From the NCBI GenBank assembly GCA_044236265.1, contig JBIIGV010000041.1:1-23310 (forward strand): a DNA stretch of 23,310 nt. Direction: 5' to 3'. A program made the translations under genes and the position numbers. The first letter of the stretch is position 1, and every line of letters begins with the position of its first letter. Positions 2,781 to 22,967 of this stretch are shown here, one piece after another. This stretch comes from Oligoflexales bacterium. GTDB taxonomy: Bacteria; Bdellovibrionota_B; Oligoflexia; Oligoflexales; RGVZ01. Below the pieces are notes generated by a model. It was not told the origin of the DNA. It ran no database searches and saw only the letters and a program-made list of their open reading frames with translations.

Positions 2781-3818
2781 ATGACTGCAAAAATCACCAT
2801 CATGCTGCTTACAATGTTGGGATTCATTGGCGTTTCCGGGCCTGTCCAAGCTAAATCTTTTTATGAATATTGCCTACACCCGGCCAACGATGCCGAACGC
2901 GACACCGTTATCGCAATCATGATTGAGATGAAAGTATGGCAGAGGCTAAACGAAGAAAATTGCCAGTTCGCGGCCGAACTTTTGCGACAGAAAACCTATC
3001 TGAATATTTTTCCAGACCCCTTTGATGCCGCGCACAATCCAGCGTCTAATCTCAAACCTTTGGAAGAGGAAACCCAACTCCGAAGCCTTTCACTGGCGCG
3101 CAATGAGATAACTGACATTAGCCCTCTCTCAAAACTCACGGAGTTAAAGCAACTCAACATCAACTACAACCCCATCTCCGACATCTCAACTGTGGCAAAA
3201 TTCAAGCGGCTTGAGGAGCTTGATGCAACTGAAACTCGGGTTGTTGATTTGCGTCCAATTTCAGATCTACCAATGCTGAACACCTTATCCCTGTCAAAAA
3301 CAGGCATTTCGGATCTATCGCCAGTCAGGTCGCTGCGACACCTTAAAAATATTTACCTCAGCCAAAACCTTGTGCGAGATGCCTCACCATTGGACCACCT
3401 TGCACTGGAGTATCTGACGATTGATACAAACCAAATAGAAAGACTTGATATTACACAGTCTCAGGCAACATTAAAAATGCTCGAAGCGTCAAACAACAAG
3501 CTCTCTGAGATTGTCGGGATAGATAAACTATTGAAAATCGATGCTATTAGTATCGCTAGCAATACAATTTCCGACTTGAACCAGATCGCTGGATTGAAAA
3601 CCCTACGATTCCTGAATATAAGACATAATCAGGTACGGTCGATCGAGCCTCTTGGGAATCTTATAGACCTCGAGCATTTATTGCTCGATGGAAACCAGAT
3701 CTGTGAAATTCCTGATTCAGTGAGAGCTCTTCAGCTGGATCATATGAATTCAAAAGGAAAATGGATCACACTTGAAATTGTCGGTGAGAATGACCAAATT
3801 GGATGCTCCCAACAGTGA
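2781..3818 (+). CDS. secreted internalin-type leucine-rich repeat protein
   Basis: Signal peptide (VQA|K) and about 10 22-residue repeats of the form LxxLxLxxNxIxDIxPLxxL. Confidence 0.9.
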   Translation: MTAKITIMLLTMLGFIGVSGPVQAKSFYEYCLHPANDAERDTVIAIMIEMKVWQRLNEENCQFAAELLRQKTYLNIFPDPFDAAHNPASNLKPLEEETQLRSLSLARNEITDISPLSKLTELKQLNINYNPISDISTVAKFKRLEELDATETRVVDLRPISDLPMLNTLSLSKTGISDLSPVRSLRHLKNIYLSQNLVRDASPLDHLALEYLTIDTNQIERLDITQSQATLKMLEASNNKLSEIVGIDKLLKIDAISIASNTISDLNQIAGLKTLRFLNIRHNQVRSIEPLGNLIDLEHLLLDGNQICEIPDSVRALQLDHMNSKGKWITLEIVGENDQIGCSQQ

Positions 3819-5014
3819 CGTCTAAATCGGAATTTCGCCTCAAAGTAGTCGGACTTAGCGCCTCGGATCTTGATGTTATAAGATCTTTGAGACGTAGCAT
3901 GAGCGCGCAGATACCTGCGATCGTCGACTCTTTTTACTTGGAAATGACGCAACACTCTGACCTGAGAGAAATCATCTCACAACACACAACGACCGACCGA
4001 TTAAAGAAAACGTTTACCATGTATATTGAGCGTTTGTTTAAAGGTGAGATTGACCCAGTTTACGACGAGGAAAGAATTCAGATCGGCAAAACGCATTACC
4101 GTGTCGGACTTCCACTAAAATGGTACCTTGGAATGTTTTCCATTTTAGAGCACAGGATTCTAAACGCTCTTGAATCCACACGTGCTGCAATGAACCCTGA
4201 TAATTGGGTGCAAACTTATACTGCGATTTCTCGTCTAATGAAGTACGACCAACTACTCGCGGTCGACGCCTATGTCGACGCTCATACGACCGAATTGCGA
4301 CGTCAAACAGAAGAGGCAGAGCGATCACGCGAGGCAAAAAGCCTTTTTCTCGCCCAAGTCAGCCACGAGCTCAGGACGCCACTTTCTTCAATCCTGGGGT
4401 ACACGGACCTAATTTTAGATACCGCGAAAGAAATCTCTCCATCAACAAGACAACATCTGTCGGTGCTGCATCGTAACGCAACGAATCTGCTTTCGTTGAT
4501 CAACGGTTTGATTGAAATCGGTCAGGCGGATAGTGGCAGATGGAAGACTGAAGAGACTTTTGCACAAATCAATGACCTATTTGACGATATAGCGACCAAC
4601 GCGGAGGGCTTGTTAGCCGGAAAACCGGTCCAATTCATTCGAGACTATAATAAACGCGGCAAATTCAAGGCTGTACTTGATTTTTCCAAACTTAGACAAA
4701 TTCTCCTGAACTTGGTCAGCAACGCCTGTAAATTCACTGATTCAGGATATGTCGCACTTGATTTCGAAAAAGTAGATCAACGCCTGGTGATCAGGGTTCG
4801 AGACTCAGGCCCAGGAATTCCAGACGTCTATCGTGATCAAATATTTGAGGAGTTTTTCAGAATTCCATCGGAAAGCTCAAAAAAGCCTGGCAGCGGACTA
4901 GGGCTAACGTTGGTAAAAAGTCTCGCCAGCTCCATGGGTGGCTCAGTCGACGTCTCCCCAGAAAGCCCCAAGGGAACAATCTTCACAGTTAAACTTCCGC
5001 TGAAGTCAGTCTAG
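3803..5014 (+). CDS. globin-coupled sensor histidine kinase (protoglobin/sensor globin + HisKA + HATPase_c)
   Basis: Globin motifs IVDSFY (B10 Tyr) and RIQIGKTHYRVGLPLKWY (proximal His); H-box FLAQVSHELRTPL; N box QILLNLVSNACKFT; G1 DSGPGI; G2 GSGLGL. The true start may be GTG 3815, overlapping the LRR stop codon. Confidence 0.92.
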   Translation: MLPTVTSKSEFRLKVVGLSASDLDVIRSLRRSMSAQIPAIVDSFYLEMTQHSDLREIISQHTTTDRLKKTFTMYIERLFKGEIDPVYDEERIQIGKTHYRVGLPLKWYLGMFSILEHRILNALESTRAAMNPDNWVQTYTAISRLMKYDQLLAVDAYVDAHTTELRRQTEEAERSREAKSLFLAQVSHELRTPLSSILGYTDLILDTAKEISPSTRQHLSVLHRNATNLLSLINGLIEIGQADSGRWKTEETFAQINDLFDDIATNAEGLLAGKPVQFIRDYNKRGKFKAVLDFSKLRQILLNLVSNACKFTDSGYVALDFEKVDQRLVIRVRDSGPGIPDVYRDQIFEEFFRIPSESSKKPGSGLGLTLVKSLASSMGGSVDVSPESPKGTIFTVKLPLKSV

Positions 5015-5082: not shown

Positions 5083-6237
5083 TCAAAGTGCGGGAGCGTC
5101 ACTTTCCGCAGCAATGGCAGCTTCATAGATTTTCGACAGTTCACTCCATTTAATGATAGCTCCACCAGCTCTGTTATTTGATACATCCTCAAATTTAGGC
5201 GTGGAGTTCGTCCACAAAAAATCAGGACGCTGCTCACTAAGCCACGCGCCGCCGATAATCATCCCGCGACGGTTGATTTCAAGTCTATAACTGTAGGTTC
5301 TTGTCATCATTTTACTGCCTACCGATGCCCATTCTGGGCTAATCTCAGCACCATACTGAATCGTAGTTTCCACTGTGACCTCACGCACCGTCCAAAACGA
5401 GGCACCTCGAGACCTACCGCGGGATTCACTTAAAACTTTTGTGGAGAAGCTCGCAATTGGTTGATTCCAAACTTCGATGTCACGAGTCAAATCGGCAATA
5501 AAACCCTTTTTTTGGATACCAATTAAATTGGCCAAGACAAGATGAAAAGCTCCAGCGTTCGTATCACGACATCCCGGTTTATTTGCTGCCTCCGGATTTT
5601 TTGAAAAATCATCATTGCAGCGCGCTGCGATCATCCGACTTTCAACACGGGCGTAATCTGCAGAGTAAAGACTTAAAAGCGCTTTGATATCGGACGACCC
5701 GAAAGGAATCGCTAGTCCATTCGCTCCAGTCAACGTGATTGCCTTTGGCTCTTTGAAAGCAAGAGACGCAGGGGCCCAACCATGGCAAATCCCGAACCAC
5801 GCTTCATCATCCGGACTTGTACGTTTGATCTCGCTATTGAAGAGAGTAAAAGAATCGTCACCAACAAAAAGATCAAACTTCTCCGCAGGTGATAAGCGGG
5901 ACAACTGCGCAGGATCCATCAATTTAGCTTGATCAAACGTCACGGGATTGACATCGTGGCCACTGATGTCATCTCGCCACCGGACAGCGAGTCCACCGCG
6001 ATAGCTCGGCCAGTAGGAATCAGTCCAAGGCTGGCGATCAAGCTGACCTGAAAGTGGCAGTGACTGAAACACAACTTCATAATCGGAAGGCAACATGCGG
6101 ATCGGTTCATTTGCCTGATCCCACCGCTCTTTAAGCCTCGCAACATTTTCATGACGTAAATCTGTGGATGCGCCGCAGCTTGTGATGATCAGCAAAAAAA
6201 ACATCAAACCCGCTTTTCGAAACATAGATGCCCCCAT
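5083..6237 (-). CDS. lipoprotein of the transglutaminase-elicitor (Phytophthora GP42-like) family
   Basis: Lipobox ITS-C. Family motifs WTDSYWP, LSPAEKFD, WFGICHGWA (catalytic Cys-His), FGSSDIKAL (Asp), DTNAGAFH, EVWNQP, YSYRLE..IIGGAW...PDFLW. Confidence 0.85.
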   Translation of the reverse strand: MGASMFRKAGLMFFLLIITSCGASTDLRHENVARLKERWDQANEPIRMLPSDYEVVFQSLPLSGQLDRQPWTDSYWPSYRGGLAVRWRDDISGHDVNPVTFDQAKLMDPAQLSRLSPAEKFDLFVGDDSFTLFNSEIKRTSPDDEAWFGICHGWAPASLAFKEPKAITLTGANGLAIPFGSSDIKALLSLYSADYARVESRMIAARCNDDFSKNPEAANKPGCRDTNAGAFHLVLANLIGIQKKGFIADLTRDIEVWNQPIASFSTKVLSESRGRSRGASFWTVREVTVETTIQYGAEISPEWASVGSKMMTRTYSYRLEINRRGMIIGGAWLSEQRPDFLWTNSTPKFEDVSNNRAGGAIIKWSELSKIYEAAIAAESDAPAL

Positions 6238-11896: not shown

Positions 11897-12904
11897 TTAA
11901 GACTCAGATCGCGTGCGTCTGCGAGGGCGCGCCCCAGACGACGAGCGCCGAGTGCCTCGTACTGACTTCGATTCCTGAACTGTTGACTCTTCTGTGTCCT
12001 CACTAACCGCTGTCGCCTTTACAACTCGGGGCGTACTGCGAACTGGAGATTTGGAGGACGTGGCCGCTACTGGTTCTTCCTGTTTGGGAGAACTGACATC
12101 AACGGACTCAGTCTTGACGTTGCTAGCCATCTTCATTTCATCACCAAATCTAGCTACGATCCACGTTCCAGTCCTTTGGTGAAGGGCTAGCTCTAAAAGA
12201 CCGTCTTTCTGAGCATCCTGCAGAAGACCTGTAAAACTGCGGTAACCAAATTGACGTTCGCTAAATCCCGGGTGCATGCGGCAAATCGTATTCTTGATTA
12301 ACGCGGCACCCAAAAACTCTTTGTCCTCACGACGTAAGGCGGTCAATGCTTCAAACAGCAAATTGAACGCGTCACGCTTCGAGCCAGAGACCGCAGGGGG
12401 CATAACAATGGCGCTTGGCGCATCAGCCACCGGAACCAGATCTTCATAATAAATAAACTCATCACAGTTATCCCGCAGCAAGGCCGACGTGCTGGCATTC
12501 ATACCGATTCCAATCACGTGTTTACCTAGCTCTTTAAGCTTACTTACCAACGGGGAAAAATCACTGTCGCCTGAAACAACGACAAACGTATCAATATGAT
12601 CTTTGCTGTACGCAAGATCCATCGCATCCACGCACAAGCGAATGTCTGCGCTATTTTTACCTGATTGCGCGCGCTTAGGAATCTCTATCAACTCGATTGC
12701 AGACTCATGCAATGACGCTGTATATGCATGGAAGCGATTCCAGTCGCAATAAGCCCGCTTCGCAACGATCTTGCCTTTTTCAAGCAGGCGTTTTAGCACA
12801 AACTTAATTTCAAACCTTCCAGATCTGTCCTTAAATCCCAGTGCCAAATTCTCAAAATCTATAAATACCGCGATCGAGCGGCTACTTACCTGTAAATTAC
12901 TCAA
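11897..12904 (-). CDS. NYN (LabA/DUF88) domain protein with OST-HTH/LOTUS domain
   Basis: AVFIDFENL, RAYCDW, GKNSADIRLCVDAM, VSGDSDFSPLV, CDEFIYYEDL; LOTUS PGFSERQFGYRSFTGLL; basic disordered tail; TTG start. Confidence 0.92.
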   Translation of the reverse strand: MSNLQVSSRSIAVFIDFENLALGFKDRSGRFEIKFVLKRLLEKGKIVAKRAYCDWNRFHAYTASLHESAIELIEIPKRAQSGKNSADIRLCVDAMDLAYSKDHIDTFVVVSGDSDFSPLVSKLKELGKHVIGIGMNASTSALLRDNCDEFIYYEDLVPVADAPSAIVMPPAVSGSKRDAFNLLFEALTALRREDKEFLGAALIKNTICRMHPGFSERQFGYRSFTGLLQDAQKDGLLELALHQRTGTWIVARFGDEMKMASNVKTESVDVSSPKQEEPVAATSSKSPVRSTPRVVKATAVSEDTEESTVQESKSVRGTRRSSSGARPRRRTRSES

Positions 12905-21772: not shown

Positions 21773-21801
21773 AAAAACCCCCGACAGAACTGCCAGGGGT
21801 T
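21773..21801 (-). terminator. intrinsic terminator of the nuclease gene
   Basis: Minus strand AACCCCTGGCAG-TT-CTGTCGGGGGTTTTT; G-U pairs indicate the minus strand. Confidence 0.8.
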
Positions 21802-21835: not shown

Positions 21836-22741
21836 TTAGTTGTGAGCCATCGGAATCCACTCGGGATCCACGGCGTTCACATTCTTAATAGGCAATTTCT
21901 GTGTTCCAGCCACCGTGAAAGCTACATCCCAGATCTTACCAAGCAAGGCAGAAGCGCGGGCAATCCTTGGAGTTAGGTCCTTCGTTAGCCACTGGTCATC
22001 CGGGGATGAGGCTTCAAACTTGTCGTATACAGCCGCCAAAGCATTGAACGCATCCTCAGCTTCGCCCCAAGACACTCTTTGTAATTCAGTGTTCTCAAGA
22101 TCATTGCCGATCGAGCGCTCAAGTCCACTGCGTCTTTCACCTGCAATCTTCTGCGCCGTGTCAAAAAGGTGGTTGTCATCGATGCGATCCACCAGTGTCG
22201 TTTCATAGTACTTGTGAACGCCTGGCTTATTGATGGATTGTCCATCATAGTCGGTCGTCGCATGCATTGGCTGGGTCATATCGCCCACGTAATGTCCCAT
22301 CACGCCTGCAATCTGAACAGCACGCTTAAAGTCTCCCTTTTTCAGGGCTGCAACCAGCTGCAGATAGAAATCACTGACGCGCCACATGGCGAATCCGTGT
22401 TTGTTAACGAAGTCTTGCCCAAGCTCATCTCGTGCTCGTCCTACCGTCAAATCAGCAAGACTGTCGCCAAGGCGACTCTGTCCGTATCCATCCATCTCAA
22501 ACCAGTGCATTGGTTTTTCCAAGTTGGCATTCGGTCCAGACTTCCACTTGACGTCGGGAGTGTTGGAGAACTTGATGACTTGTTCGCTATTTGCGTCGAG
22601 AAACTTTTTGGCCTGAGGGTTAGCTACCATCGAGATAGCAATGCGGTTGACAGTCGCATGGCCTTTTCCGCCCCAAGCAAAAGCTTTGGGAGTCAGAATT
22701 GCTACAAAAAACAGCACTGAACAGACTGATACTAGTCTCAT
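21836..22741 (-). CDS. secreted S1/P1 nuclease / Zn-dependent phospholipase C superfamily protein
   Basis: Signal peptide AFA|WGGKGH (mature Trp1/His6), PD, HWFEMD, GHYVGDMTQPMH and GVHKYYE provide the trinuclear Zn ligands. SD GGGAG lies 5 nt before ATG 22741. Confidence 0.9.
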   Translation of the reverse strand: MRLVSVCSVLFFVAILTPKAFAWGGKGHATVNRIAISMVANPQAKKFLDANSEQVIKFSNTPDVKWKSGPNANLEKPMHWFEMDGYGQSRLGDSLADLTVGRARDELGQDFVNKHGFAMWRVSDFYLQLVAALKKGDFKRAVQIAGVMGHYVGDMTQPMHATTDYDGQSINKPGVHKYYETTLVDRIDDNHLFDTAQKIAGERRSGLERSIGNDLENTELQRVSWGEAEDAFNALAAVYDKFEASSPDDQWLTKDLTPRIARASALLGKIWDVAFTVAGTQKLPIKNVNAVDPEWIPMAHN

Positions 22742-22748
22742 TACAACT

Positions 22749-22811
22749 CCCATAGTCAAACATTATACGGTGTTTGGTAGAAACGCCGGCCCAATTGCCG
22801 GTTTATATGGG
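22749..22811 (-). ncRNA. purine riboswitch aptamer (guanine-type, C74)
   Basis: Minus strand CCCAUA-UAA-ACCGGC-AAUUGG-GCCGGC-GUUUCUAC-CAAACA-CCGUAUAA-UGUUUG-AC-UAUGGG. It has P1/P2/P3, canonical J1/2, J2/3 and J3/1, and the GG/CC loop-loop pair. Confidence 0.92.
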
Positions 22812-22840
22812 TACACCAATAATTCATTGGCGACGGGGAG

Positions 22841-22869
22841 AGACTATATGTCGTCAGCTGACAAGTCAA
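22841..22869 (-). promoter_or_regulatory. sigma70 promoter for the riboswitch-nuclease transcript
   Basis: Minus strand TTGACT-N17-TAGTCT. Predicted TSS near 22834, about 23 nt before P1. Confidence 0.7.
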
Positions 22870-22903
22870 ACGGATTCTAAGGATTTTAAAGTAAAGATCA
22901 GAT

Positions 22904-22967
22904 AAAGAAAGGGGTTAACGCCCCGGTTTCCTTCAGAAGAAACTAATGCTGAACCCGTAAACGAGGC
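22904..22967 (-). other. candidate structured RNA element (unassigned)
   Basis: GCCUCG/CGGGGC stem enclosing a GUUUCUU/AGGAAAC hairpin, a possible GGGUU/AACCC pseudoknot, and an alternative GGGG/CCCC hairpin followed by UUUCUUU. Confidence 0.3.

Follow-up and report, generated by a model that had tools for sequence, protein, structure and literature searches.

The minus strand of a 23,310-nucleotide stretch of DNA from an Oligoflexales bacterium (contig JBIIGV010000041.1; hereafter the window) carries, in the last 1.1 kb of these 23.3 kb, a self-contained unit made up of a promoter-like element, a purine-type riboswitch aptamer, a coding sequence and a terminator (Table 1). The unit is, with good probability, best explained as a guanine-class riboswitch that occupies the translation start of an exported zinc phosphodiesterase gene and would likely act there as a translational OFF switch. 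The positions given for the aptamer, the Shine-Dalgarno (SD) sequence, the ATG and the stop codon in an initial annotation of this DNA all matched the sequence on recheck.

The aptamer was identified with the Rfam model RF00167 (Purine), which was aligned over its entire length (model positions 1-102) to 22733-22830 on the minus strand at 56.6 bits, compared with a gathering threshold of 37 (E 1.7e-7). RF00167 was the sole Rfam family above threshold in the window. The covariance-model check proposed with the initial annotation thus gave a full-length match well over the cut-off. The three-way junction is formed by P1 (CCCAUA 22811-22806 / UAUGGG 22754-22749), P2 (22801-22797 / 22790-22786) and P3 (22776-22771 / 22762-22757). 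J1-2 opens with U22 (22805), J2-3 reads GUUUCUAC (22784-22777) and contains U51 (22779), with U47-U51 canonical, and J3-1 consists of the two nucleotides AC, C74 being located at 22755.

According to the available part of one report, U22, U51 and C74 are the bases that contact guanine (PMC9295807). All three are in place, so the C74 guanine-type core that had been described for this locus is complete and its class can be assigned by sequence criteria. An adenine riboswitch, which needs U74, is ruled out by the C at 22755. Sections of two further papers give position 51 as U in nucleobase binders and as C in 2'-deoxyguanosine (2'-dG) binders (PMC6847200, PMC8872408), and the first of these also describes a 2-nt insertion in J3-1 of the 2'-dG-II class. 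When the window's genome was searched with RF03165 (2dG-II) at E values up to 10, no match was found at the aptamer. The 2'-dG-II identity is therefore ruled out by U51, by J3-1 without the insertion and by the missing RF03165 match. By every sequence criterion the aptamer is a canonical guanine-I member, and binding of the ligand is predicted.

Covariation was analyzed in an alignment of 31 distinct aptamers from the order, scored on the Rfam structure. Paired cells made up 91.6% in the alignment and 77.4% in shuffles, changes on both sides were observed at 16 of the 20 pairs, and the covariation score was 0.548 compared with 0.268 in shuffles (none of 500 shuffles scored as high). In a control where the structure was slid by 1-3 columns, 25-45% of cells were paired. 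No variation occurred in the U51 column and almost none in that of C74, where the lone exception (L017) is displaced by an insertion of 1 nt. Among the 11 orthologous leaders C74 did not vary. The L2 GG and L3 CC were found in 31/31 aptamers, and we take them to form the loop-loop pairs G37-C61 and G38-C60 of the xpt structure. Three P1 pairs that include SD purines co-vary (CG17/UA6/AU5, UA14/CG11 and CG21/UG8), indicating that these bases are selected both for pairing and for ribosome binding.

The position of the aptamer is conserved as well. Ten close homologues of the encoded protein (54-84% identity) were found among species-representative genomes labelled Oligoflexales, Bdellovibrio-like or unclassified metagenome-assembled genomes (MAGs), and the best-named relative was Pseudobacteriovorax (Bdellovibrionota; Oligoflexia; Oligoflexales). 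In all of these ten loci an RF00167 match (47-63 bits) ended a few bases inside the start of the open reading frame (ORF). The comparison of homologues suggested with the initial annotation thus showed that the aptamer stays on the start site. The locus of a distant Acidobacteria homologue (29% identity) had no RF00167 match. Two records with an Oligoflexales-type gene and aptamer (L009 and L011) are labelled 'uncultured Polynucleobacter sp.', probably owing to a binning or labelling error.

The ribosome-binding site of the gene is built into the aptamer. The overlap of the P1 3' strand (22754-22749) with the SD (22751-22747) is exact in sequence, as had been stated before. A 5-nt spacer separates the SD from the ATG at 22741, which follows the last P1 pair after 7 nt. 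When leaders of the order were compared, the best SD-like 5-mer shared at least 3 nt with the contiguous part of the P1 3' strand in 26 out of 31, and the remaining five contain a P1 mismatch or bulge at which the strict overlap count stops. No terminator-like site was detected between the aptamer and the ATG in a terminator scan. The minimum free energy (MFE) structure of the leader consisted of the 5' hairpin and the aptamer, and folding of the window's leader gave no competing fold; neither the SD nor the P1 5' strand had another pairing partner. An anti-sequestor or other alternative fold was thus not found in this leader.

The initial annotation had predicted a compact guanine-type translational OFF switch. 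This prediction is supported by the covariance-model match, the placement in ten of ten loci, the covariation of P1 with the SD and the lack of a terminator platform, and the OFF direction, as read from the architecture, is well supported. A relic, or an aptamer that works as an ON switch and does not repress this gene, is hardly credible. The full-length model match, the invariant ligand-contact bases, the covariation and the ten conserved loci all argue for selection. The SD, moreover, lies within the P1 3' strand and has no other partner in the apo fold.

Variants of the platform occur in the order. A divergent S1/P1-type subgroup (L086 1300-1380 on the minus strand, L093 100-190 on the plus strand, and L094) displays a P1 with an internal loop, in which UA/UA is followed by mismatches and then by the CCC/GGG of the SD, so that the SD still pairs with the 5' strand. 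The Rfam alignment of L093 and L094 was limited to model positions 24-82. The coding regions of L020 and L024 repeat the P1 3' strand (UAUGGG or CUGGG) at about +20, and this copy pairs with the P1 5' strand in the MFE structure. This predicted pairing could make the copy an anti-sequestor in these two leaders; it is absent from the window.

The encoded protein matched both Pfam families PF00882 (Zn_dep_PLPC; 37.9 bits, cut-off 26.8) and PF02265 (S1-P1_nuclease; 32.6 bits, cut-off 29.5, profile positions 1-156 of 258), and a search of NCBIfam with the protein returned no family. According to precomputed matches, PF02265 is carried by 52 of 55 homologues and is the sole family in seven of them, as it is in the more distant members L041 and L075. 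The PF00882 scores of the divergent riboswitch-linked relatives L041, L075 and L056 were 13-21 bits, below the cut-off. When 30 family members were aligned, no variation was seen at W23, H28, D63, H79, H150, D154, H160, H176 and E180, the nine positions at which the structures of P1 and of phospholipase C (PLC) lead one to expect the trinuclear-zinc ligands.

Structural alignments to the mature chains of P1, PLC and alpha-toxin begin at residue 23 of the model, which corresponds to their residue 1. Cleavage of the signal peptide, as predicted from the sequence, would leave Trp23 as the mature N-terminus. The mature sequence would then start with W-G-G-K-G-H, with His at position 6. This W-x4-H spacing is presumably that of the P1/S1 type, the PLC type having Trp1 ... 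His14, and the N-terminal segment of the PLC type is lacking in the mature protein. The enzyme had been described as secreted. This holds for its export past the inner membrane, which is predicted from the signal peptide, but secretion beyond that point is conjectural.

The AlphaFold (AF2) model had a pLDDT (predicted local distance difference test) of 89.6 and a pTM (predicted template-modelling score) of 0.87. VIA-align ranked S1/P1 nucleases in all of the first ten places (Z 20.2-21.0), and the next unrelated fold was at Z 3.9. The Z scores of individual nucleases were 21.0 (S1), 20.9 (SmNuc1), 20.3 (TBN1) and 20.0 (P1), those of the alpha-toxin N-domains were 19.6-20.1, and those of stand-alone PLCs were 18.6-19.0 (B. 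cereus PLC 18.6). When the family profile was compared with PDB sequences, residues 1-65 of S1 nuclease matched profile positions 25-86 (E 3.2e-3) and B. cereus PLC matched positions 132-191 (E 2.5e-4; second match 1.6e-4). From profile and model, the protein appears therefore to be a mosaic and a third branch of the superfamily, with an S1-like N-terminus (25-86) and a PLC-like centre (132-191). Among the homologues examined, this branch was found in Oligoflexales-type MAGs only.

Because the homology is mosaic, the substrate cannot be named from homology, and the earlier caveat about a PLC-like H..YE ligand was well founded, the protein being a true mosaic of S1/P1 nucleases and zinc-dependent PLCs (Zn-PLCs). 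A decision between nuclease and PLC by homology alone failed, as the Foldseek results were mixed, the VIA-align scores differed by at most 2.4 Z and the profile matches were divided. A nucleic-acid or nucleotide substrate is favoured because the divergent riboswitch-linked relatives score with the S1-P1 family only and because of the company of riboswitch-linked genes described below. Judged from these sequence relationships, the protein is likely a nuclease, and it would most likely degrade nucleic acids or nucleotides outside the cytoplasm.

A census of RF00167 was made over 94 genomes of the window's order, and the first downstream ORF was read at every site. The products were grouped by single-linkage blastp clustering with two manual corrections. 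RF00167 was detected above threshold in 56 of the 94 genomes, with 1-2 sites each and 76 sites in total; among 36 genomes of a phylum set outside the order, one had a match. All of the 76 sites had a start codon just past the P1 3' strand, and all of the 76 first downstream products begin with a signal-peptide-like or lipoprotein-like segment. They fall into six families: HNH-like lipoproteins (42 sites; HNH at 13-18 bits, below the cut-off), S1/P1-PLC-like proteins (19 sites; the window's protein and several relatives exceed the cut-off, L056 does not), a family without Pfam match (6 sites; a D...E-V-K motif recognized by eye), DUF3465-like proteins (6 sites; 23.9-24.5 bits, just under the 25-bit cut-off), Endonuclease I (2 sites; 98.5 and 87.7 bits) and Exo_endo_phos_3 (EEP; 1 site; 82.4 bits). 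Guanine riboswitches usually control genes by which purines are made, salvaged or taken up (PMC9295807), and none of the 76 first downstream ORFs belonged to these groups. This regulon is the chief support for the proposed explanation.

The proteins of the HNH-like family share an invariant D-H...N...N motif. A firm HNH assignment of this 42-site family failed on the Pfam scores, on Foldseek, on VIA-align and on the profile comparison with the PDB, and an HNH identity of the commonest target family is weakly indicated by this motif and by the predominance of HNH domains among the weak hits. The exported proteins of about 180-220 aa in L014, L017, L028, L031, L042, L061 and L044 have no Pfam match and are always located behind a guanine aptamer; their segment '...GELDvVVF...AEVKCW' resembles by eye the motif of PD-(D/E)xK nucleases. 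The DUF3465-like exported family is found behind the aptamer in L078, L080 and L088-L091, and this association suggests a nucleic-acid-related role for DUF3465.

A wider reading can be put forward tentatively, as somewhat short of probable. The guanine riboswitch of the Oligoflexales may have been wholly repurposed: at its 76 of 76 sites it would control at least six unrelated exported enzymes that degrade nucleic acids, every one with its ribosome-binding site within P1, and instead of purine metabolism it would, as a purine-satiety sensor, throttle the digestion of extracellular or prey nucleic acid. The mosaic protein would then be the third branch of the trinuclear-zinc phosphodiesterases.

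For the unit in the window, the following mechanism is proposed. At high cytoplasmic concentration, guanine or hypoxanthine would bind the three-way junction and lock P1. With the GGG of the SD at the outer end of the locked P1 and the compact aptamer 8 nt from the AUG, the 30S subunit would be kept off and less enzyme would be made. Scarcity of purine would let the 6-bp P1 fray, so that synthesis of the enzyme could proceed. The Sec-type signal peptide would export it, and cleavage would create the N-terminal Trp that the zinc site requires. The exported enzyme could then free nucleotides from extracellular or periplasmic nucleic acid. Their dephosphorylation, the release of the base and the return of the purine via HGPRT would close the loop, which would amount to product feedback on purine scavenging. 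Beyond the SD/P1 overlap itself, we infer these steps.

Several points weigh against this explanation. The locus is known here from sequence and computation alone. Only three of the five SD bases lie within P1, and the A and a G of the SD are left free. A nearest-neighbour model without ligand already had P1 formed in 84% of its ensemble and left the SD with a mean unpaired probability of 0.39. As P1 is mostly formed without ligand and three of five SD bases are paired, the amplitude of the switch is not predictable. The fold of the whole leader is unexceptional (z-score -1.17; 25 of 200 shuffles were as good). As to the substrate, the E values of B. cereus PLC for the central block are better than those of S1 nuclease and of P1 (0.06-0.74), Foldseek ranked PLCs and alpha-toxins like the S1/P1 nucleases (TM-score by query within 0.46-0.59 for both), VIA-align separated them by 2.4 Z at most, and the last ligand motif, H176-x3-E180, ends in Glu and is in our assignment PLC-like, the nucleases having H-x3-D. 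As to the regulon, a firm nuclease-superfamily assignment exists for 22 of the 76 targets and not for the other 54, the genomes are related MAGs whose counts are not independent events, and only the first downstream ORF was considered. For the HNH-like family, HNH domains dominate a weak Foldseek list (E at least 0.059), the VIA-align Z was at most 4.2, and the profile comparison with the PDB gave E 0.61.

The partial burial of the SD and a P1 that is predicted to be mostly formed without ligand would fit control exerted mainly after initiation, by ligand-dependent mRNA decay or Rho-dependent termination. The conserved 5' hairpin, too, suggests that mRNA stability matters. The ligand could also be another one, hypoxanthine or xanthine, and binding of hypoxanthine by xpt-type aptamers is documented in the accessible part of PMC6847200. 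However, post-initiation control would add to SD occlusion rather than replace it. No element for it was found, no terminator lies between the aptamer and the ATG, and the SD/P1 overlap is the one feature common to the six unrelated target families. We regard such a mechanism or ligand as quite improbable.

It is unlikely, though less so, that the riboswitch is real and the enzyme is a PLC or another phosphodiesterase that does not act on nucleic acids and serves, for instance, membrane attack or phosphate scavenging, with guanine as no more than a general nutrient signal. Here the Zn_dep_PLPC score exceeds the S1-P1 score, B. cereus PLC gave the best sequence matches in the PDB, the H176-x3-E180 motif is presumably PLC-like, and two relatives were named 'zinc dependent phospholipase C family protein' by NCBI. 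Against this, the N-terminal third aligned best with S1 nuclease, its W-x4-H spacing is, we believe, P1/S1-like, VIA-align gave only S1/P1 nucleases in its first ten ranks, and the distant members carry PF02265 only. Moreover, the same aptamer precedes Endonuclease I and EEP nucleases in the same order, and a lipid enzyme under a guanine sensor has no evident logic.

If the preferred explanation of a guanine-responsive OFF switch on an exported nuclease-type enzyme is true, a textbook riboswitch class is wired to nutrient acquisition outside the cell instead of the synthesis or transport of its own ligand, and this is achieved with a minimal platform, the SD inside P1. It would also provide leads to function by association for the HNH-like lipoproteins, the DUF3465-like proteins, the family without Pfam match and the S1/P1-PLC mosaic, and, from a Gram-negative lineage, a natural translational OFF module that is compact and responds to guanine. 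No long-standing question is opened by it, and a related precedent exists in the 2'-dG-II riboswitches before endonuclease I.

The type example of the guanine-I class (RF00167) is xpt-pbuX of B. subtilis. The window's aptamer shares with this class the three-way junction, U22/U51/C74, the J2-3 sequence, the L2 GG and the L3 CC, and its predicted direction, less expression when guanine is plentiful, is also that given in the part of PMC9295807 at hand. It differs in its targets, since the purine-metabolism genes usual in the class account for none of the 76 sites, in its platform, an SD built into P1 and not a terminator, and in its host, which belongs to the Oligoflexales (Bdellovibrionota) and not to the Bacillota. 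The aptamer is thus an ordinary guanine-I member; what is unusual is the target class, the SD-in-P1 arrangement throughout and the host lineage.

The 2'-dG-II riboswitches (RF03165) belong to the same structural family and offer a precedent for a purine-family riboswitch before a nuclease gene, their gene associations including the DNA-acting endonuclease I and ComEC as well as phospholipase D in a section of PMC8872408 that cites Weinberg 2017. They display C51 and the 2-nt J3-1 insertion, whereas the window's aptamer has U51, no insertion and no RF03165 match, and they are rare nucleoside sensors reported from Bacteroidetes. The initial annotation had called target and host unusual. This is borne out for the target class and the lineage, but the target is no isolated case, being part of an order-wide regulon, and the 2'-dG-II precedent lowers the surprise. 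Direct SD sequestration by a ligand-stabilised aptamer helix, with no separate platform, resembles the designs of SAM-I (P1 3' side), preQ1 and TPP riboswitches (PMC2258182, Barrick & Breaker 2007). The available part of that survey names no purine class among such designs, whereas here the arrangement is the rule in every leader examined.

The protein has the all-helical fold of the S1/P1 nucleases (P1, S1, TBN1, AtBFN2, SmNuc1) and the Zn-PLCs (B. cereus PC-PLC, Listeria PLC, alpha-toxin N-domain). The structural alignments reach Z 18.6-21.0 across some 220 residues, and the protein has a complete nine-residue zinc site and a predicted N-terminal Trp. Its identity to any solved member is 13-20%, and it apparently forms a separate branch. 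A similar physiological logic is found in the surface 3'-nucleotidase/nuclease of Leishmania and Crithidia (class I, P1-type), an external enzyme of the P1 superfamily, which in Leishmania is stimulated by purine deprivation according to the accessible portion of PMC8554303. This enzyme belongs to eukaryotes that are purine auxotrophs, and its regulation does not use a riboswitch, whereas the window's genome has purF and purH. In the literature covered, no link was found between a canonical guanine or purine riboswitch and nuclease genes or Bdellovibrionota; Weinberg 2017 and Singh & Sengupta 2012 were outside this scope and may bear on novelty.

Table 1. Features of the riboswitch-controlled unit in the window and the second complete aptamer of the genome
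Feature	Position	Strand	Description
Promoter-like element	22841..22869	-	-35 TTGACT 22869-22864, 17-nt spacer, -10 TAGTCT 22846-22841
Inverted repeat TGTC-N7-GACA	22849..22863	-	between -35 and -10; half-sites conserved, N7 variable
5' hairpin	22814..22832	-	8 bp, 3-nt loop; 2 nt upstream of P1, about where the mRNA is predicted to begin
Guanine-type purine aptamer, P1 to P1	22749..22811	-	three-way junction P1/P2/P3
Shine-Dalgarno GGGAG	22747..22751	-	GGG supplies the final three pairs of P1 on the 3' side
Coding sequence	21836..22741	-	301 aa + stop; ATG 22741-22739, stop 21838-21836
Predicted signal peptide, residues 1-22	22676..22741	-	MRLVSVCSVLFFVAILTPKAFA; Sec-like, ends AFA|W; low pLDDT, helical
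Intrinsic terminator	21773..21801	-	11-bp stem, 4-nt loop, U5; 35 nt past the stop
Second complete aptamer	L002 1501-1597 (G000 contig C130)		49.2 bits; on the start of ORF 1590-2180

A sigma70 promoter had been proposed upstream of the aptamer. In 11 aligned orthologous leaders TTGAC was invariant and the T-A-n-n-n-T positions of the -10 were invariant or nearly so, and to this extent the proposal stands. Its consensus, however, is weak: the -10 TAGTCT agrees at 3 of 6 positions, and the consensus promoter scan gave zero sites on the minus strand and thus did not report the element. An alternative -10 is TATAGT (22848-22843) with a 15-nt spacer. The position of the transcription start is a prediction from this sequence. 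Of 19 leaders of the S1/P1 type, 10 contained TTGAC-N2-GTC-N7-GAC, compared with none of 56 leaders from the other riboswitch-linked families. TGTC-N7-GACA is thus a candidate operator, through which a protein could add a second level of control.

The 5' hairpin had a folding energy of -7.1 kcal/mol (z-score -2.96). A hairpin at the same place, but with a different sequence, was predicted in all of the 11 orthologous leaders (z-scores +0.6 to -3.1), and it may stabilise the mRNA or stack on P1. The terminator that had been assigned to the gene as its own was confirmed by its fold (-21.3 kcal/mol, z-score -4.57, none of 200 shuffles as good), although it was not among the sites listed by the consensus terminator scan. 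This strong terminator so close to the ORF indicates that the unit is monocistronic, and the next gene downstream of it, which encodes an E1 dehydrogenase fusion, is unrelated. The in-frame AUG at 22753 pointed out in the initial annotation exists, but it belongs to the conserved P1 strand and is not conserved as a start. Seven of 11 orthologues have it in the frame of the real start and four do not, and it was rejected as the true start.

The window's genome contains two complete aptamers only, both located before genes of exported nuclease-type families. The second precedes a gene for a 196-aa lipoprotein-like protein of the HNH-like family with the D-H...N...N motif. A 154-nt copy of window positions 22776-22929 with 90.9% identity (L045 1-154) is located at the edge of contig C56 of the same assembly (G000). 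This copy comprises the promoter, the 5' hairpin and the 5' half of the aptamer and runs off the contig end, and the DNA upstream of it shows no relation to the window. The assembly contains one copy of the protein gene, and no other was found behind this leader fragment, which comes either from a paralogous locus whose gene was not assembled or from a strain variant. The genes purF (506 bits), purH (357 bits) and that for HGPRT are located elsewhere in the genome, and the presence of purF and purH rules out purine auxotrophy as an explanation. No Xan_ur_permease was found in this assembly, which is 88.7% complete.

Three further genes of the window have no link to the riboswitch unit. They encode a protoglobin-histidine kinase fusion (3803-5014, plus strand), a protein matching the 'transglutaminase elicitor' family (5083-6237, minus strand) and a 335-aa NYN-domain protein (11897-12904, minus strand).

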